Positions 1,772 through 63,699 of a stretch of DNA of 64,000 nucleotides are shown here, in pieces (the first letter of the stretch is position 1; each line of letters starts with the position of its first letter). A program made the position numbers and the translations under genes. Under the pieces are notes generated by a model. That model searched no databases. It was not told the origin of the DNA and saw nothing but the letters and a program-made list of their open reading frames with translations. Source of the stretch: Acidimicrobiia bacterium (lineage in GTDB: Bacteria; Actinomycetota; Acidimicrobiia; Spongiisociales; ZC4RG35); the NCBI GenBank assembly GCA_965203555.1, contig CBDBCY010000004.1:2912001-2976000 (forward strand), written 5' to 3'.

Positions 1772-3069
1772 CACAGACCCGCTTTTCGGTTTTGTTGGTC
1801 GATGTGCCGCTGGTACACCTCCAGATCGATCACCGTTTCTGTGTACAGGTCTCCGATACCGGCGGCGATAGCCAAAGCCGCGTCCGATGGCGGACGGTTG
1901 GGTTTGGGTTTGCACGGTGGTTTGGTGGTGAACTCGGCCAGGACCACGTTCTCCAAAGCAGCGGTGTGCTCGGGTAGCCGAACCACCCGTCCCATACCGC
2001 GGGGTGCCTGCTGGTGGGTAGCGACCAGCCGGCCACTGGCCGAGAACATGCTGATGGTGGGGTCACCGAGCCTCCAACGGACGGTGACCTGGGTTCCTAT
2101 CACCCCTGGTGGCACCGAGTATCGGTTACCGCGTACCGATACCAGCCCGTTGGATGTCACCCTGCGCTCCAGGATCCCTTCTGCCGGGTAAGGCACCGCA
2201 GGAAGCTCGAGGAGAGGCTCGTTATCGGCCAGCTCGCCCACCGTGCTCTCCCGCCGTGGGCGAAGATCGCCCACGGTCTGGCAGAAGCTGTCCAGGCTGT
2301 GCTGTGCTTCGGCGATGCTGGTCACCGCTGCGGTGCGCCACCACCGCTGAGAGACATAGTGGATGGCCTTTTCCACCACGCCTTTCCGTTGGGGACGGCG
2401 CGGTGGGCACGGATCGACAGCCACCCCGTAGTGTTTGGCTACCCCAACGAACGACGGCTGGATACGACCACTGGCCGCCACCACGGTAGCCATCCGATCC
2501 ACCCTCCACCGCCGCGGGGTACCCTCCAGTCGTCTCAACACCTGGTCGAGACCCTCCACCAAATGGGGTTGGTCCTGGCGGGACGTGATCCACGCCCGAA
2601 ACCGGCCCGAGTGCGACAGCACTCCCACCAGCACATGAGCGGTGGCTCCCCACGGGGCGTCACGTAGTTCCACCCAGTCCCACTGGCACTCCTCACCCGG
2701 TGGATGATCAATAATCGCCGTGGCCCGGCCCCTGGTACCCGCACAGGCGCCACACAACGGCCGCAGGCCCCGAAGACGGACCTTCCGCACAAACGTCACA
2801 TAGCTCTGCTCATAGCCCAAAGCCACCACCTCGTCGAACAGCGCCGACCCCCACACATGCGGATCATCAGACAACCGCTGCCGCACATACGCCTCGAACT
2901 CATCAAACAGATCCGTCTCTGCCCGGGCACGCTCGCCCGGGGCTCGCCCGTCCGACAGATACGCCCGTATCGTTTTCCGGTCTCTTCCCAAATGACGAGC
3001 AATAGCCGAGATCGACCACCCCCGCCTCCTCAAAGCATGAACTTCCACGCACTCCTCCAGTACCAACAT
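1771..3069 (-). CDS. istA: IS21 transposase IstA
   Basis: N-terminal HTH (GWSISAIARHLGRDRKTIRAYL), PGEECQWDW, DRM, PQRKGVVEK DDE core, GNRYSVP C-terminal domain. GGAGAGGAG RBS upstream of ATG 3069. Confidence 0.95.
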   Translation of the reverse strand: MLVLEECVEVHALRRRGWSISAIARHLGRDRKTIRAYLSDGRAPGERARAETDLFDEFEAYVRQRLSDDPHVWGSALFDEVVALGYEQSYVTFVRKVRLRGLRPLCGACAGTRGRATAIIDHPPGEECQWDWVELRDAPWGATAHVLVGVLSHSGRFRAWITSRQDQPHLVEGLDQVLRRLEGTPRRWRVDRMATVVAASGRIQPSFVGVAKHYGVAVDPCPPRRPQRKGVVEKAIHYVSQRWWRTAAVTSIAEAQHSLDSFCQTVGDLRPRRESTVGELADNEPLLELPAVPYPAEGILERRVTSNGLVSVRGNRYSVPPGVIGTQVTVRWRLGDPTISMFSASGRLVATHQQAPRGMGRVVRLPEHTAALENVVLAEFTTKPPCKPKPNRPPSDAALAIAAGIGDLYTETVIDLEVYQRHIDQQNRKAGL

Positions 3070-3171
3070 AAGGGGATAGGGCTCCTCTCCACAGCTAGTG
3101 ACATGACAATCGCCTAGCTTGGAGAGAGCCCTACCCAACAACGGGTATTTGCTCCCAGAGGGTGGGGAATT

Positions 3172-4404
3172 TCAGTGATCGAGACTGGGGAATTTCAGTG
3201 ATCGCCAACAGGTGAGCCAGTGTTGGTATTGGGTGGCGAGTTGGTGGTTGTGGTAGAGGCCTCGTTCGAGTTGTGAGAGGCGGTTTGGGTGGGTTTGGAG
3301 GGCTATGGCGGCGCGAGCCAGAGTTGTTTGGGTTTTTTGGCGTAGGCAGCGTAGATCGCTGCCGTTGGGTGTTTGGTTCGGGTTGGTCAGCAGTCGGTAG
3401 ACCTGGCGGGCGATGTAGCGTTTCAGGCAGCGGATGATCTCTTTGCGGGTTTTGCCTTCGGCTTGTCGCCGTTGGGCGTATTCGATGGTGCGGGGGTCGG
3501 TGCGTAGCCGTACTGTGGCTATACGCCAGAGGGCGTTGTTGGCTTGGCGGTCGCCGCCGCGGTTGAGTCGGTGACGCACTATGCGTCCCGACGACGCTTG
3601 GACGGGGCTTGCGCCGCAGAGAGCGGCGAAAGACGCTTCTGTGCGCATGCGGTGGGGGTTGTCCCCGGCGGTGACCAGCAGCGCGGCGGCGGTTTCGGGG
3701 CCGATCCCACCGGCAGCCAGCAGCGCCGGGTTGGCCCGGGCGCAGAGCTGTTTGATTTCGGTGTCGAGTTGTTGGATCTCCCAGGTAAGTGCTTGGTATC
3801 GGCGGGCCAACAGACGCAACGCTTTCTTGGCATAGGCGATATTGGTCCGGTTCGCGCCGGGACGATAGGCGGCGCAGACCTTCACCCGGGCTTTCGGGGA
3901 AAGGCTCCCGAGTTGGTGTTTGACCTGGTCGGGAGCGGTGACCACCAGAGCGTGCAGCTGGTTGATGGTCTGGGTGCGGGCCTTGGCGGCCGAACGGCGG
4001 ACCACCCGAAGCATCCTGATCGCTTCGACTGGTCCGTCGCCGCTTTTGGGTGTCCCGGTGGCCTGTCCGCTCAAAACAGCCCGGGCCGCGGCCTGAGCGT
4101 CGGTGGCGTCGGTCTTGCCGAACCGGCGGCGCAGTTGACGGTTGGGACGGTTCACTTCCACTACCTCGACACCGATTCTCACCAGGTAGCGGGTCAGGCC
4201 GGCGCCGTAGCTGCCGGTGCCCTCTATTCCGACCTGGGCAACGTTGCCGTGTGACCCCAGCCAGTTGCCCAGTTGTTCATAACCGGCTGTGTCGGTTCCG
4301 AACGATGCCGTGCCCAACACCCGACCGGTGGTATCCACCACCGCCGCCACATGAACATCGCGGTGGGTGTCCACCCCACCGAACACATCAACCCGATCTG
4401 ACAT
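3172..4404 (-). CDS. IS110-family DEDD recombinase with C-terminal HTH extension (last residues replaced by IS21 end sequence)
   Basis: GVDTH, GIEGTGSYG, GKTDATDA (D-E-D-D) and Tnp-domain serine motif ASSGRIVRHRLNRGGDRQAN. The native end ...HWLTTPQTPI* is recoverable at 919-899. GAGGAG RBS before ATG 4404. Confidence 0.93.
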   Translation of the reverse strand: MSDRVDVFGGVDTHRDVHVAAVVDTTGRVLGTASFGTDTAGYEQLGNWLGSHGNVAQVGIEGTGSYGAGLTRYLVRIGVEVVEVNRPNRQLRRRFGKTDATDAQAAARAVLSGQATGTPKSGDGPVEAIRMLRVVRRSAAKARTQTINQLHALVVTAPDQVKHQLGSLSPKARVKVCAAYRPGANRTNIAYAKKALRLLARRYQALTWEIQQLDTEIKQLCARANPALLAAGGIGPETAAALLVTAGDNPHRMRTEASFAALCGASPVQASSGRIVRHRLNRGGDRQANNALWRIATVRLRTDPRTIEYAQRRQAEGKTRKEIIRCLKRYIARQVYRLLTNPNQTPNGSDLRCLRQKTQTTLARAAIALQTHPNRLSQLERGLYHNHQLATQYQHWLTCWRSLKFPSLDH

Positions 4405-4635: not shown

Positions 4636-5755
4636 GATGAGGTTGTTGATGCCTTCCAGGGATCCGTTCGAACGGCGGGCGTGGTGCCAGTTGAGGATTT
4701 CTTTTGACCAGTTGAGGACGGTGGTGACGGTGTGGTAGTACTCGGGTATGTGTCCGGTTTCGTACAGGGTGACGAACCGTTCGAGGGCATCGAGCGCGGT
4801 GGGGAGGTCTTTGGCCTCATAGAGGCCGTAGAGTTGTTGGAGAGCGCACCGAGGCGACCCGCAGACGCGGGTACGCCTCGAATAGGTGTCGGAGACGTTT
4901 TTTCTCTTCGGGGGTGATATTGGCCTTTCTTTTGAGGAGCAGGTACCGGGCGCGGAACAGATCCGGATGCCAGGCGGGTTTGACGCCGGGCGACTGGCGG
5001 CGTTGCAGATCCCGGCGTACCAGGGTCAGTCCTTCGGTGAACCAGCGGGCGGCGTGGAACCGGTCCAGGACATGACAGGCCGAAGGAAGGTAGCGGACGA
5101 TGGCCGCCTGGTAGGAACGGGAACCGTCGGAGACCACGACCTGTACGTTCTGGCGCCAGCGGGGTCCCTGCTCGATGAAGAACCTGCTCAACGCCTGTTT
5201 GGACCGCCCAGGGAACATGGACAGGATCTCGCCGGTGTCGCCGTTGACAACAACGGTTACATAGCGGTGGCGTTTTCGGATCGATGTTTCGTCGATCAGC
5301 AGCACCCGGCACCTTTGGCGACGGCGCCGGGTTCGGATCAAATGGGACCAGTCGGTGACCAGACCCATGATCAGATGCCAACTGATCTGGTGGCGGCGGG
5401 CCACTGCCCGGATGGGCATGGCCTGGGCGTCCTGGACCAGCCGGCGGGCCAGCCGGCGCGTTATACCACCCACAAACTGGGGATGGGTTTCCATGTGCCG
5501 CCTCTCGCACCGGTCGCACACGTACCGTCGCTGCGTCCACAACAACACCGTCAAACGTCCGCTCACTTCCAGGTCGCGGATTCGCCGCTGGCGGCGGTCG
5601 TGCACCCGCCGGCACGACCGGCCACAATGCGGACACTCCGACAGCTTCTTCACCGAGACCACCTCCACCACCAGCTCCCCGACGGTGTCAACCACCACCT
5701 TCGTCACCCGCACACCACGCAGGTGCAACCGGACCGGCATAACATCAGCATTCAT
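4636..5755 (-). pseudogene. ISL3-family transposase, frameshifted (~4850) and interrupted by IS110
   Basis: Zinc finger CPHCG...CDRC, LLIDETS, VVSDGS, LDRFH. After ...AYPRLRVA a different frame continues LQQLYGLYE...WSKEILNWH...SNGSLEGINNLI. Confidence 0.9.
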
Positions 5756-5940
5756 TGAGGCCTCCTGGATAGGCGATTCGCTTACACCACCTATTCCAGC
5801 GAGGCCTCAACCCCTAACCAAGGACCCCCTCCCTAACCCTGCTCCCCACAAATACGCGCAGCCTCCTCAATACTGAAGGGTGCGCGGGTAGGGAGATCGT
5901 GATTGTCGCCCTCCAGCATCTTTACCCAGGCAGGAGAAGA

Positions 5941-7838: not shown

Positions 7839-8888
7839 CTACCAGCCGCCCAACCGGTCTACTTCGGCCCATACCGCCGCCTCCGGTTCCTCGACCGGGG
7901 GGAACTCGACAAGTCCCGACACTGACTTCGGGGAGATTGCCAATACTCGGGCGGCCTGGGTTTGGGTGAGGACTCCTTTGGTCAGAGCGGCGCATACCAA
8001 CTGCAACATGGGGCGGGGAGCGGTGGCCAGTGGCGGAGGGTTGGCGCCACGGCCTCGGTCCATCGGATTCGGAGAGTAACCCAATCCCGGCGCCAGTCCG
8101 GTGGGGGAGACCTGTCCCATCCGATGGTATTGCTCCCCCGAGATCAAGCCCGACTGGCGAAGCCGCGTCGCGATCAGCGCATAGCTCACTCCGAACATAC
8201 GTTGCAGGTGTAAAGCCGCCACGGGATGGGAAGGTTCCACGCCTCCCCCCAGGGCGGCCACCGCCCTGATCAAGGCGCTATCGGGTACCAGCAGTTGGGC
8301 GGCGAAGCCGTCGGCAAGGCGCTGATGGGGTCCCTCGGGTTGCGAGAACCAGGCATCTCGCAGGTGGGAATGGCAGAAGGCGTGGCCCAGTTGAGCAGCC
8401 AGTGCGAATAGGTGGCGCCCCAGGTCCAGTCGGGAGTTCACCACTGCGCAGAACCCGATGGACGGGTGGTTGAAGAAGAATCCGGAGTGCGGTTCTCCCA
8501 GAGGAAGACGAAAGACCATGGCGTGGGGAGCGGCCAGCGCCAGCAGGTGATCGAAGATCGGCCCCTCGCCCCAGCCGAGAGCCACTCTCGCCGCCTGGGC
8601 AAGCCGGGACGCGTCGCCGAGATCGGCCCGGTGGGGAAGGGAAGAAGGAGGCAGAGGGCTGATTCCGCGACCGGGCAGTTCCCCGCCCATGAGGGTCACC
8701 AATTCGAGGTAGGACTGTGCCAGTTCGGCGAAGCGGTTTACGGAGATCCGGAAGTCGTTGTCCGGTGCGAAATCGGCCCAACCGAGGACCTCGGCAGCCA
8801 GGACAGGCGCCGCTGCTCGGTCCGCCGGCCACCGGTTCATCGAGTCGGTCTGCTCCGAGGGAGATTCCCGATCGACCCTGTCACCCAT
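7839..8888 (-). CDS. ImmA/IrrE (peptidase M78) family homologue with degenerate zinc motif
   Basis: SGFFF...VVNS...GRHLFALAAQLGH, QRLADGFAAQLLVP and FGVSYALIATRLRQSGLI follow the IrrE pattern, but HExxH reads AQLGH. Confidence 0.8.
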   Translation of the reverse strand: MGDRVDRESPSEQTDSMNRWPADRAAAPVLAAEVLGWADFAPDNDFRISVNRFAELAQSYLELVTLMGGELPGRGISPLPPSSLPHRADLGDASRLAQAARVALGWGEGPIFDHLLALAAPHAMVFRLPLGEPHSGFFFNHPSIGFCAVVNSRLDLGRHLFALAAQLGHAFCHSHLRDAWFSQPEGPHQRLADGFAAQLLVPDSALIRAVAALGGGVEPSHPVAALHLQRMFGVSYALIATRLRQSGLISGEQYHRMGQVSPTGLAPGLGYSPNPMDRGRGANPPPLATAPRPMLQLVCAALTKGVLTQTQAARVLAISPKSVSGLVEFPPVEEPEAAVWAEVDRLGGW

Positions 8889-9136
8889 GGCAGCGGCATC
8901 TGCCCAAGCCTATCTTGAGGATTGCCTCCTTCGGGGCGCAAGGCTCCATCGCAATGACGAAGAGCGGCAAGAAATGTCGGGATCCGGATTGACGTTGTCT
9001 CACCCTTGTCCTCATACTGTGGGGACTGACACAAATACCTCCGGCCGGGGACCGGGCTCACCCAGGCCGCACTATCCAGAGGTCATAGAAGCTAAATGAA
9101 CTCAGTCGTGAACTTTCGCGACCTTGAAGACGGCTC

Positions 9137-9188
9137 GGTGGCGGTGGGGGTGGGCCCGGCAAGGGGGGAGGCCGAGAATTCGCGAAAT
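9137..9188 (-). repeat. Dispersed ~50-bp intergenic repeat, copy 1
   Basis: Reverse complement ATTTCGCGAATTCTCGGCCTCCCCCCTTGCCGGGCCCACCCCCACCGCCACC resembles 54390-54438. Confidence 0.6.
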
Positions 9189-9319
9189 AGTGATGATGTT
9201 CACAACTTAGTGCAGGCTTTAACCTGATTGTTGGGATCCTTACAAGAAGGACTCGGTACAGAATTGTGCGGAACCGCTCTTTGGAGGAAACCCCAGTCTT
9301 CGAACGGGGTAGCGGCTCG

Positions 9320-9799
9320 TCAAGCTTCGGAGGGTTCTTCTTCGCTGTCAGTGGCGGCACGAAACCGGGGGCGCTCGACCAGGCGTTTGAGGACTCCCAG
9401 ACCCTTGTCGGCCATCTTCCGGTAGCCTGCGATCAGTTCTCCCAGTTTCTGGCGGTCCTCGCGGGCGCTTTTGAGCATTTCCATCAGTTCTGACATCTTT
9501 GCCGTATGAATCTCCAGTCTTGGCGTCAGCCGTCGGCTGGCGTGTTCCAATTGACGACGAACCTTCTCTAAATCCTGGCGCGCCTTGTCTCGCTCGCTAC
9601 GAGCCTCCTCCAACTCCCGGTTTGCTTTTTCCAGTTCGGCGCGGGTTGCCTGAAGTTCACTCCGCACCAGGTCTCGCTGTTGTTTCATTCTCTTGTAGGC
9701 CACTGATGCCACGACCCCCCAGATCAAGAAGAGGAGGGCGAGGGAAAAGCCGATGCCGGCGATCCACCATTCGGTGTCGAAGTCCCAGTTGACTGTCAT
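9320..9799 (-). CDS. Hypothetical protein, N-terminal TM helix plus coiled coil
   Basis: WWIAGIGFSLALLFLIWGVV followed by heptad-rich ELQATRAELEKANRELEEARSE; GAGAGGAGG RBS. Confidence 0.7.
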   Translation of the reverse strand: MTVNWDFDTEWWIAGIGFSLALLFLIWGVVASVAYKRMKQQRDLVRSELQATRAELEKANRELEEARSERDKARQDLEKVRRQLEHASRRLTPRLEIHTAKMSELMEMLKSAREDRQKLGELIAGYRKMADKGLGVLKRLVERPRFRAATDSEEEPSEA

Positions 9800-9996
9800 C
9801 AGGGGTTACCTCCTCTCTCCGCCGGTGTGAGCGGGCAATCCCCTGCACTCAAAGTGTATGCCCTCCGCTCCAACCCTCCTGCTTCCTTTCGGTCACTGGA
9901 AAGCCGGTTCGACCGGATGCTGGCAGTGCCTATCCAGGCTGGTCGGCTGCCTCTTCCTCCGACTGGGGCACCCCCTGGTCCGCCCTGGCGCGAACG

Positions 9997-10782
9997 TTAC
10001 TCACCGACCTCCGCTCCCAGGGCTGCAACCAGGGCGGGCACTGCCTGTCCAGCCGGCAGCGAGACCTTGGTTGCCGCGAGATGATCGAAGGCGGTAGGGC
10101 CCAGGTTGACGATCACCATCGGGATTCCATTCCGGGCCGCTGCTACGGGGATATCTGCTGCGGGGTACACCGACAGCGTCGAACCTATCACCAGCACGCC
10201 GTCGGACAGGGCTGAGAAGAACCGAGCCTTTTGTATTTCTCGTTCCGGAAGCATCTGCCCGAACGAGACGGTGGCGGTCTTCACTATGCCGCCGCATTGG
10301 GGACAACGGGGCTCCTCCTGTCCGGCGTCCACCCAGCCAATCACCTCGGCAGTGGGCCAATGGGCCGGACAACTCATGCATCGGGTTTTGCGGACGTTGC
10401 CGTGCAGCTCAGAGACCAAGTCGTCGGGGAGGCCGGCTTCCTGATGAAGCCCGTCGATGTTCTGGGTTACGCACCCCGTAAGCCGCCCCGCCTTCCACAA
10501 GTCCACAATGGCCAGATGGGCAGCGTTGGGCTTCACCTGCGAGCCGGCGCCCAACAACTCGCCCTGCTGGTGCAGCCGCCAGCGCATAACCCGCACCCGG
10601 CGGCTCGACATGTAACGATCGATGTGGAAGTCATCGGGATCGAGCTTGGTCCACAACCCGTCGGGACCTCGAAAGTCGGGAATGCCCGACTCGGTGGACA
10701 CCCCCGCGCCGGTGAATACCATGATCTGATCGCAGCCGCTCAGCGCCCTGGCCGCCCGGTCGATCGGAGAGGTGTCGCTCAC
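9997..10782 (-). CDS. cobB: Sir2-family NAD-dependent protein deacylase
   Basis: GAGVSTESGIPDFRG, TQNIDGLHQEAG, ELHGN, CxxC...CxxC, IGSTLSVYPAA. The GTG start overlaps the xdhC stop (GTGA). Confidence 0.9.
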   Translation of the reverse strand: MSDTSPIDRAARALSGCDQIMVFTGAGVSTESGIPDFRGPDGLWTKLDPDDFHIDRYMSSRRVRVMRWRLHQQGELLGAGSQVKPNAAHLAIVDLWKAGRLTGCVTQNIDGLHQEAGLPDDLVSELHGNVRKTRCMSCPAHWPTAEVIGWVDAGQEEPRCPQCGGIVKTATVSFGQMLPEREIQKARFFSALSDGVLVIGSTLSVYPAADIPVAAARNGIPMVIVNLGPTAFDHLAATKVSLPAGQAVPALVAALGAEVGE

Positions 10783-11825
10783 CCTCTCGCGCCCAGGTAA
10801 CGGTCGGGATCGCGACGGAAGGCGGTTTCGCAACCCGCCGCGCAGAACCAGTAGCCCTGCCCGTCATGATCGGCGGAAAAACGGGCCCGGGAGGGGATCA
10901 CCATCATCCCGCACACCGGGTCGGTCGTTTCCTCGTTGGCAGCCGCCTCCCTGCGGTCCTCGCCCGAACCTGTGGACACCGCGCCGGCCTCCGCCAAGGC
11001 AGATCGGCCGCCCCTCGCCGAGGGGGCTGCTTCCGAGACGTGGGACGCCGAGCCTCGCAAAGCCACCAGTTCGGCCAGGATGCTCACCGCCATCTCCCGG
11101 TGCCCCACCCGTCCCAGGTCGAGTCCGGCCGGTGCTCGTACCCGGGCCAGGTCGGCCTCGCCCACCCCCCGTTCGCGCAGGTACGAGACCACCGCCGCGG
11201 AGCGTTTCCGGGAAGCCACCAGACCCACGTGCCGGGCCCCGGTGGCCAAAGCGGCCGCCAGCGCCTCCTCGTCGTAGTGACCCTGCGTGGCCACCACCAC
11301 CATGGTCTGGCGGTCCACCCCCACCTTCTCCAGATCCAAGGTCAGGAACACCCGGTCGGACGGATCGTGATCATCGGCCCGGCCGCCGTCGTCCACCACC
11401 GAGGTGCGCCAGCCCAAAGCCCGGGCCATGGCGGTCAGAGTCCCGACGGCGGGAGACTTGCCCACCACGACCAGGTGGGGCGGGGGGAATACCGGCTCCA
11501 GGTACACCTCCATGGTGCCTTCGGAGTCACACGCCATGGGCACCGTCTCCACTCCCTGGCGGTCGCCGCCGGCCAAACCGTGATCGGGTCCGAGCACCAC
11601 CAGCCGGGCACGACCCTCGTGCAGCACCTCCCGGGCCACCCGGGTGATGGTGGGCGCCGCGCAGGCGCCACCCAACCAACCGTGCATTCGATCGTCGGGG
11701 AAGATGATCGCCCGGTATCCCTGCTTGCCCGACGACAATCCCGAACTCCACACCACCGTGGCCAGCACGAACGGCTCGCCGCGGGCGCGAAGCGCCACGG
11801 CTTGGTCCAGCAGCTCGTCCATCAC
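10779..11825 (-). CDS. XdhC/CoxF-family molybdo-enzyme maturation protein with C-terminal YHS domain
   Basis: FVLATVV, GWLGGAC, MACDSEGTMEVYLEP, VATQGHYDE, VGLVASRKR, RAPAGLDLG, EMAVSILAE. C-terminal DPVCGM...YWFCAAGCETAFRRDPDRY. Confidence 0.9.
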   Translation of the reverse strand: MMDELLDQAVALRARGEPFVLATVVWSSGLSSGKQGYRAIIFPDDRMHGWLGGACAAPTITRVAREVLHEGRARLVVLGPDHGLAGGDRQGVETVPMACDSEGTMEVYLEPVFPPPHLVVVGKSPAVGTLTAMARALGWRTSVVDDGGRADDHDPSDRVFLTLDLEKVGVDRQTMVVVATQGHYDEEALAAALATGARHVGLVASRKRSAAVVSYLRERGVGEADLARVRAPAGLDLGRVGHREMAVSILAELVALRGSASHVSEAAPSARGGRSALAEAGAVSTGSGEDRREAAANEETTDPVCGMMVIPSRARFSADHDGQGYWFCAAGCETAFRRDPDRYLGARG

Positions 11826-11858
11826 AACCTTGGACAGACGAGCTGCTCACCAGTGTTC

Positions 11859-14222
<2,364 letters not shown>

Positions 14223-52524: not shown

Positions 52525-52767
52525 ATGACAGGAGTTCCTGAGAGATTCTGGAAGTCGTTCTGGAATCATCCCGATCCGGCTTCGCTTCGCCTGCCCGAAG
52601 ACGCCGAGTACGTGGCGGGACGGATGTTCAACGGCCCTTGGCCGGATGCTGCTATCTGGGCATCGGTGCATCTCCCCGAAAGCGCGCTGGAGTACTGCCT
52701 TACCCTGCGTTCCACCAACCCCCGGACCAGGGACCTGATCGTCAACGCTCTGAATGCCCGCCCCTGA
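52525..52767 (+). CDS. Small protein upstream of AbiEii-type nucleotidyltransferase (putative antitoxin/partner)
   Basis: 80 aa, FWKSFWN...YVAGRMF; overlaps the downstream start by 14 nt. Confidence 0.6.
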   Translation: MTGVPERFWKSFWNHPDPASLRLPEDAEYVAGRMFNGPWPDAAIWASVHLPESALEYCLTLRSTNPRTRDLIVNALNARP

Positions 52768-53404
52768 TCGCGCTCTCACTCCTGAAGTACAGAGAGTCTG
52801 GGATAGGGTGGGGTCAGTGGCGCCACCTTCCGCTCAACTCCTGGGCGGGACCGCTCTGGCGATCTATCTGGAGCATCGTAAATCCGAAGATCTGGACCTG
52901 TTCGTCCACCGCCCCTTCGACTCCCAGGGACTGATCCGCAGTCTCCGGCGGTTGGGCAAGGTCGAAGCTCCATTCATGGCAGAGGGCACACTCAACTGTG
53001 TGTTTGACAACGTCAGACTCCAGTTTTTGAGAGCGACCGGACAGCGCCGGATAGCTTCGGGCCGAAAGGTAGGGGAGATGCCCGTGGGTTCGTTTCCCGA
53101 TGTCGCGGCCACCAAACTGAAAGTGATAGGAGACCGGGGGGAACTGAGGGACTATTACGACCTCATGTGCATCGAGGAGCAGGGTGCGGCGGATATCCCG
53201 CAGATGCTGGAGTGGTACTGCCGACGGTATCTGCTCGAAAGAACCGATCAGACCGTTTATCACATCGTCCGGGCCCTGGGGTCTTTGCACGACGTCGCGG
53301 ATGACCGCTGGCTCTCCGGTAGCCTCGGCGATCCGGGCTTGTTCGGGAGGGTGACGGAGTACTGGCGCCGTCGCCAACCGGAGATCGCCCGCCGGTTTTT
53401 CTGA
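52754..53404 (+). CDS. AbiEii/AbiGii-family nucleotidyltransferase
   Basis: LLGGTALAIYLEHRKSEDLDLF (GG...DxD), KLKVIGDR, RDYYDL. Confidence 0.88.
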   Translation: MPAPDRALTPEVQRVWDRVGSVAPPSAQLLGGTALAIYLEHRKSEDLDLFVHRPFDSQGLIRSLRRLGKVEAPFMAEGTLNCVFDNVRLQFLRATGQRRIASGRKVGEMPVGSFPDVAATKLKVIGDRGELRDYYDLMCIEEQGAADIPQMLEWYCRRYLLERTDQTVYHIVRALGSLHDVADDRWLSGSLGDPGLFGRVTEYWRRRQPEIARRFF

Positions 53405-58238: not shown

Positions 58239-59161
58239 TCGATCAGTTGGCGGCCGGTGAGCCGCAAAAAGACATCCTCCAGGGTGGAGCGACGGATGAG
58301 GGTGGAGATGGACCGGACGCCCCGCCGACCGAGCTCGGCCACGGTTTCGTCGGCGTCCTGGGTGTAGATCATCACCTTGTCGGGCAGGTTCTCGATTCGT
58401 TCGGAGACTTCTTCGACGATGGGCATGGCGAGACGGAGGCTCCCAGGGTCAAATCGCATCTCCAGCACGTCCTTGGTGGAGTAGCGGGCGATCAACTCCC
58501 GGGGTGACCCTTCCGCCACGATCCGTCCCTTGTCCATCACCACCAACCGGTCGCAGAGTTGCTCGGCCTCATCCATGTAGTGAGTGGTGATGATCAGGGT
58601 GACGCCCTCCCGTTTGAGCTGGTAGAGGCGATCCCAGACCACGTGGCGGGCTTGTGGGTCGAGGCCGGTGGTGGGCTCGTCCAGGATCACCATTTCGGGC
58701 TGGTTGATCAAACCCCGGGCGATGATCAAACGCCGCTTCATTCCTCCGGACAGGGGCTCCACCTGGTCGTTGCGCCGCTCGGTGAGTTGGACGAAATCCA
58801 GGAGTTCGGCGGCGCGGACATCTATTTCCGCCCTGCTCATGTTGAAGTAGCGGCCGTAGGTGAGCAGGTTCTCGTACACGGAGAGTTCCCGGTCGAGGTT
58901 GTCCTCCTGGGGCACCACCCCCAAACGTCCCCGGATCTTGATCCCGTCGACCATCGGGTCCATCCCCAGCACCCGCAGATACCCCGAGGAGGGGGGCGAA
59001 ACGGCCCCGATCATCCTCATGGTGGAACTCTTGCCTGCGCCGTTTGGTCCGAGAAAACCGAAGGCTTCACCTCCCTCAATCTGGAAGTCGATGTTGTCAA
59101 CTGCTGTGAAGTCACCGAATTTCTTGCTCAGACCCCTCCCTATCACCAGTGATTCGACCAT
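58235..59161 (-). CDS. ABC exporter ATP-binding protein (NodI-like)
   Basis: GPNGAGKS, LSGGMKRR, ILDEPTTGLDPQARH, TTHYMDEAE, LEDVFLRLTG. Confidence 0.93.
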   Translation of the reverse strand: MVESLVIGRGLSKKFGDFTAVDNIDFQIEGGEAFGFLGPNGAGKSSTMRMIGAVSPPSSGYLRVLGMDPMVDGIKIRGRLGVVPQEDNLDRELSVYENLLTYGRYFNMSRAEIDVRAAELLDFVQLTERRNDQVEPLSGGMKRRLIIARGLINQPEMVILDEPTTGLDPQARHVVWDRLYQLKREGVTLIITTHYMDEAEQLCDRLVVMDKGRIVAEGSPRELIARYSTKDVLEMRFDPGSLRLAMPIVEEVSERIENLPDKVMIYTQDADETVAELGRRGVRSISTLIRRSTLEDVFLRLTGRQLIE

Positions 59162-59232
59162 TGGAAATAGGTTACCCCTGCCATGACAGGCGGGTGAGGT
59201 GGCCCTGGAAGGATGCTCAGGGCATCGGAGGT

Positions 59233-60408
59233 TTACGTGAAGTGAAATCGTATTCTGACATATTTCCCAGAGTGACTCTGCATGATTTCGGGGCTGGTGT
59301 CGTTGAAATCGCGCATCGCATTGCACATCACGGGCCACCCCCTGCCTCGTTGTTCCATGAACCCCAGGTTGACCATGTAGTTAGCCATTAGTTCGTTCCG
59401 CGACCGGGGATGTCCGCCGGCCCGTACACTCTGGGTGCTCATGTGGTTGGGCAGCGTGCCTGGACTGGTGATGTCGACGTGCCGGGCGAAAACCTCAAGA
59501 AGCGTCTTTGATCCGGTGATGGCGTAGTCTCTGTGCACCACGGCGTTGACCAGCGACTCCCGAAGCGCCGCCCGCGGCAGCAGATGACGGTCTTCCCGGA
59601 GCAGTCCGCGATAAGACTCGTGCCGTCCCAGGCCGGCAAACCAGCCTATCGCCCGTTCCACTTGTTCGTCCAGGCGTCCTATGGCGTCTGACACCTGTAA
59701 AACATCCGAAGCCCGGTCACTGCCCTGGTAAGCGACGCATTCCACCCGAAAGTTGCATGTCTGCGGGTAGCTTTGTGGTTTCTTGCTGAAAGCCAGCAGT
59801 CCGTAAAGGGTCGGATGGAACACCCCTCCCAACTCCGCCACCACTCCGCGATTGCGGAGATCATCTTCCTCGTGGGGCTGAGGACGGGTTTCCACGTCGA
59901 GTCCGAGCCTCCGCAGATAGGAGCGGAAGACCTGGACATCAATATCGGTGGTGGTTGCCGCCTGTATGGTGCGTTCCTCGGTAAGGATGTATCCAAATAC
60001 GTTGTATAGCTCCTGGAGTTCGGTCGCCGATGGCGCAACGCTGCTTCGTCCCCGGCGTATCCATACGCGTTCACCGTATCGGAGCGGCTCGAATCCCCGC
60101 TGGCGAGGTATTTCGACCCAGTGCACCCAGCCCTTGGGGTCCTTATACCTACCGACGCGAGCCGAAACCGGTGAACTGCAACCGGTTTGGAGGAAACTCG
60201 TCAACCTCTCCTGGACTTTCTCCGCATCCTCCTTGACGCCGACGATCTGTCGGGCATCGGTCACTCCCAGGATGACCACGCCTCCCTCGGTGTTCGCGAA
60301 GGCGCATGTCGCTTTACCGATCGCGGACAGGTCTCCAAGTCCACGTTTGAATTCCGTTTGCTCATTCTCTCCGGCACTGATGCGATTGAGAACATCCAGC
60401 CATTCCAT
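59233..60408 (-). CDS. Schlafen/AlbA_2 domain plus HATPase_c_4 (RecG-C-like) protein
   Basis: GENEQTEFKR, CAFANTEGGVVILGV, RRGRSS; ALRESLVNAVVHRDY, ITSPG, SRNELMA, MEQRGRG. Confidence 0.88.
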   Translation of the reverse strand: MEWLDVLNRISAGENEQTEFKRGLGDLSAIGKATCAFANTEGGVVILGVTDARQIVGVKEDAEKVQERLTSFLQTGCSSPVSARVGRYKDPKGWVHWVEIPRQRGFEPLRYGERVWIRRGRSSVAPSATELQELYNVFGYILTEERTIQAATTTDIDVQVFRSYLRRLGLDVETRPQPHEEDDLRNRGVVAELGGVFHPTLYGLLAFSKKPQSYPQTCNFRVECVAYQGSDRASDVLQVSDAIGRLDEQVERAIGWFAGLGRHESYRGLLREDRHLLPRAALRESLVNAVVHRDYAITGSKTLLEVFARHVDITSPGTLPNHMSTQSVRAGGHPRSRNELMANYMVNLGFMEQRGRGWPVMCNAMRDFNDTSPEIMQSHSGKYVRIRFHFT

Positions 60409-60416
60409 GTCGGCGC

Positions 60417-63176
60417 CTAGAAACCGTACTTCAGTCGGCGCAGACGAAACGCTTCGTCGCCGCCGTCGACGGTCTGGACGATGGCGTCCCGCACCGCGGG
60501 ATCTTCAATGGCCCCTGAACGGGCGATCTCGCCCCGGTGTGCCGTAGCCTCCAACTGAATCACCTGGTCGGCGTCACCATTGACGACGATGTTGGCGTTG
60601 TGTGTGGCTACGATGATCTGCCTGCGTCCCTTCAGCCGCTTCAACGCAGGAAGCAGTGTCTCGAACAGGAACCGATTGTCCAATTCGTCCTCGGGTTGAT
60701 CTATCACGAGCGGACGTTCGTCATGGGTTTCCAGGAGCAAGGCGAGCAGCAGGCTCACCCGTTGTCCGCCGGAGAGTTCTTGCATCGGACGATGGATGTC
60801 GTCGTCCAACTTGAATTCCAGCAGGTACTGATCGGGGCAGCGAAGGGCCGCCAACTCGCGCCGTCTCGACGGGTTGATCTGCAATTGGAACGTCTCCTGT
60901 ACTTTGTCACTCATGCCGGTCTCCTCTAAGTGACCGGTGCGTAGCTTCTTAAGCAGACTGGTGGAACCGGGACGGGCGTCCGTCGGCAACTCGTTCCACC
61001 ATCGTGTGATCCCTCTTTGGCTCAAGGCCCTGACAAAACGATCCAGTGGTTCTTTTCGGCCTTCATCGATCCGGCGTGCGGCTATTCGTCCATCGAACTG
61101 TGAGTGGATCCTTTCGATTACGCGATCGAATGCCTGTCTTTGTTCGGTGATGAGGTGCTGTCGTTCATCGAGCAACCCGGCGAACAAATGTCCGGATTTG
61201 TCCGAGGTTTCGCGGGTCTGGTCAAGATTGGCCTGGTAGCTCCCCAGAAGTGACGCCTGGACGTTCAACTCTTGGAGTTGATTGATTCTCGCCCCGTCGA
61301 GGCCCTTTTCTGCGAGGTTCCGGTTTACCTGCACGCGAACGCCGCGCTGGTGGTCTTCCAAGGTTTGAGCTACCAACCGGATGGCGGTGTTCGTCGCGAT
61401 CAGACCGTTCTTTGCGGATCTCAGCGAGACGCCGACCTCGTTGAATCGGCGGCGAAAGTTCGTCTCGTCCTGGTTTTCTCCCGAGGTGGCCAGCGTGTCG
61501 GCAAGGTAATCGTCGATCTCCGGCAGTTCTGTGATAGCGGTGGATTTCAGAAGCCTGTCCACATCCTTCACCAACCTGGTCACTGCTTTTTCTGAATCCC
61601 GCCAGCGGCGCAGATCGCTGGATACACGGTTCAGGTTCTCCACGCCGGCCTCCGAGAATTCGGCGAGTTCCCTGGCCGCTGTTTGGCTACGCTGAAAAGC
61701 CTGCTCGGCATCTGCGAGATCATCGTCGAGCTTGGCAAGATGGCGGACGATTCGGTTCAACTCCTCGTCAAGTTCGTTCAAACGTTTTCGACGGGCCTCG
61801 ATTTCCTGTGTCTCAGATGCCACCAGCCGGGCAAGAATTCCTTCCACGGCCTCGGGATTTTGAGCCAGCTGCTGAAGTTCGGTTTGTGTGTGGAACACCG
61901 CAGGCCATTGCTCATACGGCGCTGCTGTTGGATCCCTGCCGGGGCACTCGAGAACGACCTTTGCAGAGCCGCCGAGAAAACGGTCCCTGCCGCGCGCTTC
62001 GACCTGCTTCTTCAAGTCGGCTTTTTGCGGCAGAGGCGCCCCGACACGTACCCTCAAACCATCGAGGAAAGTGCTCTTGCCGGTCATACTGCCGCCTATA
62101 ACGCAGGTCAGATCGGGGCTGAGATCGAAACGGGTATCGGGGTCGCCAAAGAAGGATGCTTTGCCGGAGACTGTTGCGGACTTCAGCCACGGGCGCCGGT
62201 GCATCGTCACATCGGGAGGATTAGAGATTTCGGTGAGGTTTCCGTTAGCGCAACGTTCGTGCCCGATGCGGGTCCGCGAGTCGCTGGCGATGAACGCTTG
62301 TCGCAGTGCCTCTATTCTCGGGCTGGCCAGCTTGAGCCATGTATGGCGTTTCCCGATCTCATCCACCGTGTAGGCGTCGCTGGCATGAAAAAACGCCTGA
62401 CGGTGTTCGGACATCTTTTCATCCAGCGCCGCCCGGTTCCGCAGTGCCTCTTTGGGTAGCTTGTCGTCGCCAAGTTCGAGACCCGCCACCTGATCATGTG
62501 GGAACTTAGCCAGTACTTGGGCTTTCAGAGTTCTCAGCAGACCCTTATCCGTGTCTATGTGGGGCGCAAGGGCGATGTAGCTCCATTGAGATTCGCCATC
62601 TGCGGTCCTGGGAGACTCGCTTCTATGGAAATCCTGAAGAGCGCCAAACGCTTCATCGGCGCTCCTGTTGGACATCGCAAGCTGGTTGGTAGGCCACGGC
62701 GACACACCGCCCATGACGAGATCGAAGGCCTTCAGATAGCGGAGGCGGCCGATCTCCGGGTCGAACAGGAAGAGCATATGCAGCCCTTTCCTGCCTTCCT
62801 TGAGCGACGACTCAAAGCCAGGAAAAACCGCGTAGATCTGTTCCCGAAAAGGTGTGCCGTCTTCATCGACGCCATTGTTCCACTCCTCCACGATTCCCCA
62901 CACCGCACTGGTTTCTGCTGCGGCGCCTATACGAGGTGAGTGCGGAGTGAGGCCAAGCACCCGGACGCCGCGATCTATGGCGCTTTGCAGAAAGCACCGG
63001 GCATAGGCGGAAATCGTTTTCTCTGACTCTTTGGGGCCGGTAACCCCAGGTGGCATCTTCGCCTTACCGCCCGGCAGGTCGTCCACAGTATGAACGTGCA
63101 GGTCGGCTTTGAACCACCGTGTGCCTGGAACATCCCGTTTCCAGCTATCCGCTTGTTGTCGTGTAAACGGCATCAT
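60417..63176 (-). CDS. PHP-like domain fused to coiled-coil ABC/SMC-type ATPase (TrlF/Ppl-like)
   Basis: WFKADLHVHT, HMLFLFDP, LAPHID, SDAY, EALRQAF; Walker A IGGSMTGKST, coiled coil, LSGGQR, PLVIDQPEDELD, ATHNANIVVNGDAD, VDGGDEAF..R..KY. Confidence 0.88.
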   Translation of the reverse strand: MMPFTRQQADSWKRDVPGTRWFKADLHVHTVDDLPGGKAKMPPGVTGPKESEKTISAYARCFLQSAIDRGVRVLGLTPHSPRIGAAAETSAVWGIVEEWNNGVDEDGTPFREQIYAVFPGFESSLKEGRKGLHMLFLFDPEIGRLRYLKAFDLVMGGVSPWPTNQLAMSNRSADEAFGALQDFHRSESPRTADGESQWSYIALAPHIDTDKGLLRTLKAQVLAKFPHDQVAGLELGDDKLPKEALRNRAALDEKMSEHRQAFFHASDAYTVDEIGKRHTWLKLASPRIEALRQAFIASDSRTRIGHERCANGNLTEISNPPDVTMHRRPWLKSATVSGKASFFGDPDTRFDLSPDLTCVIGGSMTGKSTFLDGLRVRVGAPLPQKADLKKQVEARGRDRFLGGSAKVVLECPGRDPTAAPYEQWPAVFHTQTELQQLAQNPEAVEGILARLVASETQEIEARRKRLNELDEELNRIVRHLAKLDDDLADAEQAFQRSQTAARELAEFSEAGVENLNRVSSDLRRWRDSEKAVTRLVKDVDRLLKSTAITELPEIDDYLADTLATSGENQDETNFRRRFNEVGVSLRSAKNGLIATNTAIRLVAQTLEDHQRGVRVQVNRNLAEKGLDGARINQLQELNVQASLLGSYQANLDQTRETSDKSGHLFAGLLDERQHLITEQRQAFDRVIERIHSQFDGRIAARRIDEGRKEPLDRFVRALSQRGITRWWNELPTDARPGSTSLLKKLRTGHLEETGMSDKVQETFQLQINPSRRRELAALRCPDQYLLEFKLDDDIHRPMQELSGGQRVSLLLALLLETHDERPLVIDQPEDELDNRFLFETLLPALKRLKGRRQIIVATHNANIVVNGDADQVIQLEATAHRGEIARSGAIEDPAVRDAIVQTVDGGDEAFRLRRLKYGF

Positions 63177-63264
63177 TCAGTTTCCGAGCAGATGATTCCC
63201 CTCATGAATGGTAGATAACGCTATGGTCGCTGCCAGGTGGATAGATCCAGAGACCCTTCCGGCG

Positions 63265-63699
63265 TTAGTGCGTATCGACGTGTACCGGGTCGCCGACTCG
63301 GATCATCCCTCCTTTGACTACCAGGGCAGCGATTCCCGACCTTCCGGCGAGAGCCTCTCTGGCCTGAGGTCCGACTGTCTCGTGCATCCGCCCGCACGGG
63401 GGGCAGTCCCGCCATACCGACAGGGTCGCATCGCCGATCCGGATCAGCGTTCCGGTGGTGCGTGGCAGGCGATCGGCGTCCACCGTGATGTTGCGGCGGG
63501 TGGCGCCGGGTCTGATCGAGTATCCCAATTGCTCGGCGGCCGCGGCCAACTCACCCTCGGCCACCAATGTCACGTTGCGGGTGGTTCCCAGGTAGCGGTC
63601 GCCTTCCAAGCCCTGTCCCTCCACCGCCAGCACCTCGGAGACCTCGGTCACCTCGCCGCGGTGGGCGGAGGCCAGGTGGAGGTGGGTTACCGAAGGCAT
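63265..63699 (-). CDS. MOSC domain-containing protein
   Basis: GLEGDRY, RNVTL, TRRNI, CPPCGRM, GGMIRVGD. Confidence 0.88.
   Translation of the reverse strand: MPSVTHLHLASAHRGEVTEVSEVLAVEGQGLEGDRYLGTTRNVTLVAEGELAAAAEQLGYSIRPGATRRNITVDADRLPRTTGTLIRIGDATLSVWRDCPPCGRMHETVGPQAREALAGRSGIAALVVKGGMIRVGDPVHVDTH

Follow-up and report, generated by a model that had tools for sequence, protein, structure and literature searches.

A 64,000-nucleotide (nt) stretch of DNA from an Acidimicrobiia bacterium (contig CBDBCY010000004.1 of assembly GCA_965203555.1, forward-strand positions 2,912,001 to 2,976,000; 'the window') contains two adjoining minus-strand genes, whose predicted products are a PHP-ATPase, P0001, and a Schlafen nuclease with a GHKL-type ATPase domain, P0002. 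An earlier annotation made from the letters alone, here called the sequence-only reading, had placed genes for proteins of 919 and 391 amino acids (aa) at this site, 8 nt apart, and the open reading frame (ORF) list agrees. That reading did not recognise the pairing as a named system, but on sequence grounds it already has a name: it is trlF-trlG of the TRL operon ('temperature restriction locus') of Photorhabdus laumondii, which runs trlR-trlF-trlG (Hapeshi et al. 2020, Front Microbiol 11:548800, PMC7554251), and of which the window appears to hold a divergent version, hereafter TrlFG. New relative to the literature searched (outside subscription journals and supplements) are the reading of TRL as a defence locus and the distribution of the pair across phyla, embedded in BREX and restriction–modification (RM) loci.

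P0001 passes the NCBIfam model of the TrlF family (NF045780, TrlF_fam_ATP; 351.8 bits, E 1.3e-104), with residues 18–918 aligned to profile positions 2–944 of 944; the cut-off is 350 bits, and because this margin is thin we regard P0001 as a remote member of the family. The NCBIfam models Spaf_1101 and Ppl gave weaker sister matches, far below their own cut-offs. Features of the two genes are collected in Table 1.

Table 1 Features of the trlF-trlG locus (positions within the window; aa, residues of the protein concerned)
Feature	Position	Strand	Description and basis
trlF-like gene (P0001)	60417..63176	-	919 aa, ATG start; ORF list and translation
Putative PHP-like phosphoesterase domain, N-terminal, aa 1-330	62187..63176	-	Conserved ligands, beta-alpha model, Atlas neighbours
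ABC head N-lobe, aa 333-450	61827..62180	-	Walker A GKS 366-368, Q431; model limits and conserved motifs
Antiparallel coiled coil, aa 453-693, apex about 549-570	61098..61820	-	Model, SMC-type matches
ABC head C-lobe, aa 698-919	60420..61085	-	LSGG 801-804, D826, E829, H859, C-terminal KYGF; model and motifs
Spacer, trlF stop to trlG start	60409..60416	-	8 nt
trlG-like gene (P0002), predicted Schlafen nuclease and GHKL ATPase ('Schlatpase'), no helix-turn-helix (HTH)	59233..60408	-	391 aa, ATG start
Schlafen AlbA_2 nuclease domain, aa 14-124	60037..60369	-	E14-x4-E19-x-K21 and AFANTEGG 36-43; Pfam
GHKL-type ATPase domain, HATPase_c_4, aa 299-379	59272..59514	-	Pfam; N-box E284-x3-N288 just upstream
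Intergenic region upstream of trlF	63177..63264	-	88 nt; MOSC-domain gene beyond

The AlphaFold2 (AF2) model of P0001 (predicted local distance difference test score (pLDDT) 88.7, predicted template-modelling score (pTM) 0.74) has four parts, in which the two lobes of an ABC ATPase head are separated by a coiled coil with helices at residues 453–510, 512–548, 571–623 and 644–693. This splitting of the ABC motifs by a coiled coil, in an SMC/Rad50-type fold, is a feature of the TrlF family. The translation contains Walker A G366-K367-S368, the signature LSGGQ at 801–805, Walker B/D-loop residues D826 to E829, and H859. All 34 copies compared keep K367, Q431, G803, D826, E829 and H859, and all 29 rows of a TrlF alignment (A1) have G366, S368, L801, S802 and G804. 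Pfam AAA_21 is matched at 766–864 (39 bits, cut-off 27). Foldseek comparison of the model with the Protein Data Bank (PDB) retrieved heads of SMC, JetC, MukB, Rad50, RecN and LmuB (E 5e-11 to 1e-5), one match being titled 'Lamassu LmuACB in nuclease sequestration state', and phmmer against PDB sequences returned ABC-F proteins only, at 1e-5. The sequence-only reading had compared the pair with systems that couple an ABC ATPase to a tRNA nuclease (PrrC, RloC, PARIS), and these structural matches agree in placing the nearest analogies among defence systems that join an ABC or SMC-type ATPase to a nuclease. The four C-terminal residues of TrlF, KYGF (60420-60431), are invariant (K916, Y917) or nearly so in the 29-sequence alignment, and the same four residues end a 22%-identical TrlF from Vibrio.

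That reading had described P0001 as PHP, coiled coil and ABC in turn. The latter two parts stand on motifs and model; the N-terminal domain is probably of PHP type, an assignment drawn from family membership, from conserved ligands as placed in the model, from weak matches of relatives and from an ESM Atlas lead, while Pfam PHP gave no match to the window protein at E ≤ 0.1 over its full length or at E ≤ 1 for residues 1–330. The putative ligands D25, H27, H29, D33, H79, E122, H133, H206, H264 and D267 are kept in 31–34 of 34 copies and fall at or just past the strands of the modelled beta-alpha pattern. Weak Pfam PHP matches were found in 3 of 22 TrlF relatives, and PHP_C matches in 4. The nearest ESM Atlas clusters are labelled PHP (score 0.94, 189 of 256 features in common), which serves as a lead only, and a profile of 22 N-terminal domains searched against PDB sequences found nothing beyond a chance match to RuvA (E 0.52).

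P0002 carries both Pfam domains of a 'Schlatpase' above their gathering scores and in N-to-C order, SLFN_AlbA_2 at 14–124 (E 5.6e-20, 72.5 bits, cut-off 25.3) and HATPase_c_4 at 299–379 (E 3.1e-16, 59.6 bits, cut-off 26). The intact AlbA_2 motif, the HATPase_c_4 domain and the lack of a C-terminal winged helix-turn-helix (wHTH) domain that had been read from the letters all agree with the translation and with Pfam; the protein ends at residue 391 and therefore has no room for a C-terminal wHTH. Its nuclease motif reads E14-x4-E19-F-K21, and none of the 34 copies departs from E14, E19, E284 or N288. In the Argonaute-fused Schlatpase RzAgo, the residues equivalent to E284 and N288, E314 and N318, coordinate ATP-Mg, and the E314A substitution ends hydrolysis (10.64898/2026.05.29.728809). 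The structure model of TrlG is moderately confident (pLDDT 75.2). Its first Foldseek match was the uncharacterised entry 3lmm (E 2e-16), followed by the nuclease domains of SLFN13, SLFN5, SLFN11 and SLFN14 (E 1.5e-4 to 2e-3, probability 0.94–1.00) and then by histidine-kinase ATP-binding domains; phmmer against PDB sequences found 3lmm only (2.7e-4), and the PADLOC SLFN-pAgo model matched residues 30–298.

The window and TRL share the same two proteins in the same order, with trlG immediately downstream of trlF and with domain positions within a few residues of each other (AlbA_2 at 14–128 and HATPase_c_4 at 298–365 in Photorhabdus TrlG; PMC7554251). Both are patchily distributed and have plasmid copies; TRL was reported in 21 of 46 Photorhabdus and 12 of 1218 V. 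cholerae genomes (PMC7554251). The small regulator gene that stands upstream in TRL, trlR (79 aa in Photorhabdus), has no counterpart in the window, where only 88 nt separate trlF from the MOSC-domain gene, and no conserved small upstream ORF of this kind was found in 54 related loci. The window pair also belongs to a divergent clade, its proteins being 22% and 26% identical to, and colinear end to end with, the pair encoded on Vibrio parahaemolyticus plasmid pLH80-1, where RefSeq annotates the first protein as 'TrlF family'. Since the nearest TrlG homologue that Hapeshi et al. cite from outside Photorhabdus is a V. parahaemolyticus protein, we let this Vibrio pair represent the Photorhabdus type. 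Whereas the window host has a high GC content, that of TRL is an enterobacterium, and the phenotype described there concerns temperature, with no phage link.

In Photorhabdus, trlF was annotated as a histidinol phosphatase (10.1101/2020.06.02.129163). Mutations in trlG lift the growth arrest seen there at 36 °C: of 29 clones that had gained growth at this temperature and were sequenced, 19 had a single-nucleotide polymorphism and one an insertion sequence in trlG (20/29), and two more heat-tolerant clones, isolated separately, had trlG lesions too; deletion of the operon gave tolerance, complementation brought the restriction back, and the promoter was induced when the temperature was raised and late in growth (PMC7554251). 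In the article text the words phage, antitoxin, Schlafen and tRNA have 0 occurrences each.

Relatives of both proteins are numerous. At E ≤ 1e-3 we found 853 relatives of TrlF, the best 120 being 61–72% identical, and 2518 of TrlG, the best 120 being 71–87% identical; among 1.84 billion cluster representatives searched, 6600 proteins reach E ≤ 1e-3, of which 313 pass the stricter E ≤ 1e-30. By hand count, 26 of the top 120 TrlG clusters match a top-120 TrlF cluster in the exact length of the longest contig, which hints indirectly that trlF and trlG share contigs. Genome contigs were then scanned with alignment A1: 606 stretches matched, 581 were confirmed, and the best 80 of these 581 form the set of 54 loci used here (numbered with the prefix L). 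All 54 are from metagenome-assembled genomes (MAGs), with taxa as given in the record titles, so frameshifts and binning errors are possible. They span Chloroflexota including Dehalococcoidia, Latescibacterota, Acidobacteriota, Gemmatimonadota, Spirochaetia, Alpha- and Gammaproteobacteria, 'Candidatus Poriferisocius/Poriferisodalis' (Acidimicrobiia-type), Rhodothermales, Myxococcota, Verrucomicrobiae, Bacillota, Bacteroidota and one Nitrosopumilaceae archaeon.

The sequence-only reading had proposed a check on co-occurrence, and the pair proved to be linked in other genomes: in 43 of the 54 loci, tblastn with P0002 placed a TrlG-like match on the strand of TrlF, starting no more than 80 nt beyond the end of the TrlF match, and 33 loci have both genes at full length and uninterrupted. 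The order F-then-G is kept in a Bacillota locus whose TrlG is 29% identical to that of the window, and on a Pseudomonas avellanae plasmid trlF and trlG overlap by 19 nt. Pairwise identities of the two proteins rise and fall together over 34 pairs (r=0.88, a value reached in 0 of 2000 Mantel permutations), with TrlG the more conserved (mean pairwise identity 0.59 versus 0.50). This co-variation speaks for a shared history rather than for binding, because co-transfer alone can yield such a correlation. Among the 11 loci without a TrlG match, two contigs end too early to tell (L020, L044), one locus has only a TrlF remnant adjoining a transposase (L042), one has a frameshifted TrlF (L014), and three encode remote PHP-ATPases similar only over the last 170–220 or so residues (L050, L051, L054); the other four have an intact TrlF without TrlG (L012, L035, L041, L043). 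Within the 43 loci with a TrlG match, TrlG has lost part of its sequence in L030, only its residues 2–58 are left in L038, and the end of the contig truncates it in L053; in the first two of these it has decayed beside an intact TrlF. TrlF frameshifts or stops, which may be assembly errors, were seen in L005, L010, L014 and L024. Phage genomes searched with the Schlatpase rather than with TrlF gave 30 records with distant relatives only (25.7–29.7% identity among the 10 records listed), and no TrlFG pair was seen in them.

Several loci depart from the two-gene arrangement. In L031 (10223-14171) and L032 (about 10200-14030) a second, divergent PHP-ATPase and Schlafen–GHKL pair follows in tandem right after the first; its TrlG is 25–27% identical to that of the window, so that two clades stand side by side. 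In L025 a second Schlafen–GHKL paralogue (9987-11234, plus strand; 415 aa, 27% identical to window TrlG) comes directly after TrlG and is followed by a 1105-aa protein without a family match. In L041 a 545-aa protein (2400-4037, plus strand) begins 3 nt after an intact TrlF, in place of TrlG. It has no Pfam or PADLOC match, and its nearest ESM Atlas clusters, used as leads only, are labelled 'putative HEPN domain-containing protein' (0.97, 217/256) and ApeA-type HEPN (0.86–0.88); this locus may represent an effector swap, with a HEPN protein for TrlG. The remote PHP-ATPases of L050 and L051 are followed by GT4 glycosyltransferases (8918-9994 and 8808-9941; the latter passes Pfam 'GT4-conflict' with 43.6 bits, cut-off 26), with other glycosyltransferase and methyltransferase genes around. 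An intact TrlF without TrlG in L035 adjoins, perhaps by chance, a divergently oriented gene for an RtcB RNA ligase (4650-5897, minus strand). RtcB repairs cleaved tRNA.

Neighbouring ORFs of 90 aa or more, no more than three per side, were compared with Pfam and in selected cases with PADLOC; 52 loci had such neighbours, and L026 and L044 had none. A recognised RM, BREX, CBASS or toxin–antitoxin (TA) neighbour was present in 16 of the 52, a raw count without a matched random-gene baseline, and three more (L004, L016, L031) had recombinase, integrase-core or transposase neighbours only; the remaining scanned loci had housekeeping or unknown neighbour genes. Among the BREX cases, L013, L029 and plasmid pLH80-1 have the pair between pglX and pglZ/brxL, L032 has it downstream of pglX, and in L033 it comes straight after brxL; PADLOC scored PglX at 841–1458 bits. 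In L002, L003 and L019 the pair sits directly behind a Type III Mod methylase (1341–1393 bits). If TrlFG is a defence system, this repeated embedding in BREX and Type III RM would suggest a back-up role. Other immune neighbours are a type IIG RM enzyme (L010), an MjaI endonuclease (L007), a DRT UG5-nitrilase (L019) and, in L027, a CBASS with Cap2, cyclase and SAVED; TA-type genes (HEPN/MNT, PIN, MazF, Panacea, ParE, Phd, M78+DUF4411) occur at L002, L003, L006, L014, L015, L018, L042 and L046. Downstream of the pair in L007 (10237-12659, plus strand), the MjaI-type endonuclease protein is followed by a 318-aa ORF with a partial Schlafen AlbA_2 match and an AAA_21 ATPase match.

The pair appears to be horizontally mobile, to judge from its dip in GC content, its identity across phyla, its plasmid copies and its decayed copies. 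The sequence-only reading had judged it by eye to be richer in A and T, and the GC fraction of 1-kb windows over 59000–62999 is indeed 0.574–0.600, versus 0.637–0.640 just outside (0.66–0.70 at 50–52.5 kb). TrlF is 60–69% identical across Dehalococcoidia, Latescibacterota, Acidobacteriota, Spirochaetia and Gemmatimonadota. A Nitrosopumilaceae archaeon MAG (L024) has a pair 53% (TrlF) and 67% (TrlG) identical to that of the window, by cross-domain transfer or through a binning error. Plasmid records matching P0001 number 1136 (356 Escherichia, 338 Klebsiella), mostly over part of the protein, 13 of them covering at least 80%. In E. coli E2348/69, plasmid pMAR2 (L056) has a RefSeq 'TrlF family' gene at 92913-95534, between ccdAB and vapB.

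Housekeeping genes flank the pair in the window, as had been read before. Upstream on the same strand is the MOSC-domain ORF, then an ORF without a Pfam match that is presumably a ribonucleotide reductase C-terminal tail; downstream, again on the same strand, are an ABC transporter ATPase, two ABC-2 permeases and E1 dehydrogenase subunits. No Shine–Dalgarno-like GGAGG was seen within the 8-nt spacer. Scans for regulatory signals were uninformative: 0 sigma-70-like promoter sites in 58800–63500 (1.5 expected) and five terminator-like sites around the pair (3.8 expected). Flanking direct repeats or att-like sites were sought and none bracket the island, the repeats nearby being two-copy families of 14–24 nt (75–88% identity) and weak inverted repeats only. 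A defence island within the window was considered and rejected, PADLOC (1e-6, 59 other ORFs of 85–54685) having given only generic ABC-ATPase, peptidase and oxidoreductase matches. Another patch of low GC (0.594), some 6 kb away from TrlG, holds an 80-aa ORF (52525..52767, plus strand) and, overlapping it, a 216-aa ORF (52754..53404, plus strand) that matches Pfam AbiEii (E 3.3e-13) and has no PADLOC match at 1e-6; the two may form an AbiE-type toxin–antitoxin pair.

We compared TrlFG with characterised systems that share its parts. PADLOC, a check the sequence-only reading had called for, found similarity to Ppl (1e-30) and to SLFN-pAgo, and did not place the pair in Ppl, PARIS or Lamassu. 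TrlF would nonetheless be a Ppl homologue, in which a putative PHP phosphoesterase or exonuclease head is joined to an ABC ATPase of Rad50/SMC type that has a long coiled coil, judged from sequence and model: each has an ABC ATPase with an inserted coiled coil and, putatively in TrlF, a PHP-type N-terminal domain, and the NCBIfam Ppl model matches P0001 at 8.5e-43. The score falls well short of the Ppl cut-off, however (146.4 bits versus 1000, NF042955), with the best match confined to the C-terminal ATPase lobe, and the best PADLOC stretch (PDLC02208) covers 750–913, in the same lobe. Ppl is moreover a single gene, whereas P0001 almost always has a Schlafen gene directly after it. Ppl is said to have been first reported by Gao et al. 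in 2020. It is described as an autonomous single-gene anti-phage system, an ssDNA 3'-5' exonuclease freed from NTP inhibition by phage-driven nucleotide depletion and activated by 3'-OH ends (PMC12904381; also described in preprint PMC11482910).

On the TrlG side, Schlatpases, defined as Schlafen plus PF13749, account for 60,692 of 103,533 prokaryotic Schlafen proteins, and most are small, with no other domain or a short HTH only (10.64898/2026.05.29.728809). In RzAgo, ATP-driven tetramerisation rebuilds a mammalian-type Schlafen nuclease that cleaves tRNA and protects from phage, and nuclease-dead and ATPase-dead mutants lose protection (10.64898/2026.05.29.728809). TrlG matches this architecture in both Pfam domains and their order, and E-x4-(E/D)-x-K, the 'AFAN' box and the GHKL E-x3-N are all kept. 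It has no fused Argonaute, NACHT, Ig-like or HTH sensor, its candidate sensor being a separate, upstream SMC-like ATPase. Taboada et al. (2025) report Schlafen–histidine-kinase as the commonest architecture (34.0% of 5,930), pSlfn genes within 10 kb of a defence gene in 69.6% of cases, and protection by two of seven single pSlfn genes tried (10.1101/2025.07.24.666596). A PHP-ATPase partner is mentioned neither in the text of the Schlatpase preprint nor in that of Taboada et al., supplements aside. A BREX survey links Schlafen–minimal-kinase–wHTH proteins to BREX in at least 1017 taxa and, in the text, never mentions PHP (PMC12839542); the text of an 'embedded defences' preprint lists Ppl and leaves PHP, Schlafen and AlbA unmentioned. 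In the literature searched we found no PHP-ATPase and Schlafen pair treated as a defence system, and no paper with both 'TrlF' and 'phage'.

In Lamassu the nuclease must oligomerise to act, and the ATPase complex sequesters and then releases the effector. TrlFG resembles it in having a coiled-coil SMC/Rad50-type ABC ATPase and a separate nuclease, and the TrlF model matches LmuB (E 3e-6 to 2e-5). It differs in lacking an LmuC-like kleisin and an LmuA-type effector, the PADLOC LmuB match is weak and partial (8.1e-8), TrlF has a putative PHP domain of its own, and TrlG belongs to an RNase family whereas the Lamassu effector is of Cap4 or Sir2 type. PARIS (AriA + AriB) and PrrC/RloC couple an ABC ATPase to a tRNA-directed nuclease in abortive infection. 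PARIS AriA models match the C-terminal lobe of P0001 weakly (residues 751–877, 5.7e-10), but AriA has no PHP domain and the partner in the window is a Schlafen protein, with the TOPRIM/DUF4435 protein AriB absent; PrrC and RloC are single polypeptides, unlike the two-gene TrlFG.

Co-folding of the two proteins, also proposed in the sequence-only reading, was run with TrlF residues 333–919 and gave 'weak support' for a contact (score 0.32; runs 0.00, 0.34 and 0.32; best of three controls 0.00). In calibration the mark let through 58 of 80 solved complexes and 2 of 110 mismatched pairs, and scores of 0.60 or below came from only 7 of those 80 and from both passing mismatches, counts that are rough because our own alignments were used. 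Contact agreement between runs is at least 0%, and the pLDDT of the partners is at least 73.

From these observations we consider it likely that TrlFG has a defence role of some kind. The fuller reading, an abortive-infection module with TrlF as sensor and TrlG as effector, stands in our estimate at about an even chance; we infer its anti-phage function, its trigger, the binding of TrlF to TrlG, the direction of control and the RNA target. TrlF would monitor phage-made DNA ends, the nucleotide pool or both through its PHP and ATPase sites while keeping TrlG in an inactive, monomeric form. Trigger engagement together with the ATPase cycle would release the monomers for assembly, the GHKL domain driving ATP-dependent oligomerisation of TrlG into an active tRNA or rRNA nuclease, which would stop translation and leave the infected cell arrested or dead. 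When TrlG is abundant, or in the heat, TrlF could be bypassed, and temperature restriction in Photorhabdus would then be autoimmune firing of the effector. We favour sequestration and release as the form of coupling by analogy with PARIS and with Lamassu, the latter having the ATPase fold that TrlF is predicted to share, and because TrlG has no sensor of its own and the co-fold points weakly the same way; this specific coupling is tentative, and may well not hold. The account with all its particulars (a cross-phylum anti-phage TrlFG in which TrlF senses ends or depletion and sequesters and releases a TrlG tRNase, with an effector that may be exchangeable for a HEPN RNase and a Photorhabdus temperature limit due to autoimmunity) is possible, though we place it somewhat short of even.

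Several observations weigh against this reading. No phage experiment on any TrlFG pair was found in the literature searched, and the defence role rests on context; that context is itself a raw neighbour count from loci that are all MAGs, and in the window the pair is alone among housekeeping genes, as a lone insertion. In Photorhabdus no heat-tolerant clone had a mutation in trlF, though it is the larger gene (PMC7554251), which argues against TrlF as an obligate activator of TrlG toxicity. An intact TrlG ORF beside TrlF remnants in three loci (L036, L037, L040) argues in turn against TrlF as an indispensable restraint. TrlF can also be kept without TrlG, as it stands alone in several places: intact in L012, L035, L041 and L043, and on pMAR2, where the TrlF-family gene has no Schlafen partner. 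Because Ppl is an autonomous exonuclease, TrlF may be an effector in its own right. K21 of the TrlG nuclease motif is kept in 29 of 34 copies and is G in five Chromatiaceae loci (L045–L049). A fused TrlF–TrlG protein was not found among five longer matches, which lack ABC and PHP domains (weak evidence; none of the best 120 TrlF relatives is longer than 948 aa), and the co-fold support is weak, with one of three runs at 0.00 and the PHP domain left out. One view would reconcile the lack of trlF suppressors, the intact TrlG beside TrlF remnants and the occurrence of TrlF alone: TrlF would supply the infection-specific input, while TrlG could also self-activate if over-produced or heated, the TRL promoter being heat-induced.

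The main rival to a sensor–effector module is that two autonomous defence proteins travel together, TrlF as a Ppl-like DNA exonuclease and TrlG as a Schlafen–GHKL tRNase with its own sensing, in layered or back-up defence where neither directly regulates the other. Ppl, which acts as a single gene with its own exonuclease (PMC12904381), is the precedent, and the conserved PHP ligands fit an active enzyme; TrlF-family genes occur alone (pMAR2, L012, L035, L043), each gene can persist beside remnants of the other, most Schlatpases are small proteins of the same simple build, and the Photorhabdus suppressors lie in trlG only. Yet trlF stays ahead of trlG, a few nt apart or overlapping, even where identity drops to 22–26%, and the strong co-variation, though co-transfer alone could produce it, points to a joint history. 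A few TrlF copies have lost PHP ligands while all ATPase motifs are kept, TrlG has no sensor beyond its GHKL module whereas the characterised Schlafen defence proteins are described as sensor-fused, and the co-fold gives weak support for contact. Two independent proteins seem to us unlikely, though by no means negligible.

The pair might instead have nothing to do with immunity, being a growth-control module for stress or temperature in which TrlG arrests growth in the heat or in stationary phase, or a TA-like addiction module that stabilises mobile DNA. The sole published phenotype is temperature-restricted growth, from a promoter that rises with heat and late growth and in an article text that never invokes phage (PMC7554251), and the plasmid copies adjoin partition and TA genes. 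We hold this to be improbable: embedding in BREX and Type III RM loci and adjacency to CBASS and DRT, in unrelated phyla, are typical of immune genes, the distribution in Photorhabdus and V. cholerae is patchy, both domain families have defence-proven members, and TrlF remnants beside intact TrlG do not fit the dependence of a classic toxin on its antitoxin. Housekeeping DNA repair, with an SbcCD/Mre11–Rad50-like TrlF whose PHP domain replaces Mre11 and a 'RecG-like' accessory protein, could be read from the Rad50, RecN and SMC head matches, from the Gene Ontology term 'double-strand break repair' on the RefSeq TrlF annotation and from the mention of RecG in the Pfam description of HATPase_c_4. 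It is very improbable indeed for a pair that is low in GC against its flanks, spreads across phyla at 60–69% identity, decays often, is carried on plasmids and is embedded in defence loci; TrlG has no helicase domain, and Photorhabdus has its bona fide recG elsewhere in the genome (PMC7554251).

An ATPase sensor with a nuclease effector is a familiar design, the genes are already named and annotated, and what is reported here comes from sequences and models. If TrlFG is confirmed as a defence system, a Schlafen RNase would join the effectors driven by SMC or ABC ATPases, which so far are TOPRIM, HNH, Cap4/Sir2-type and similar proteins. The commonest and least understood prokaryotic Schlafen architecture, itself without an obvious sensor, would gain a partner and candidate sensor, and single-gene (Ppl) and two-gene systems would be seen to diverge from one scaffold. 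The upper growth temperature of an insect pathogen, Photorhabdus, would then be re-read as a side effect of an immune module.

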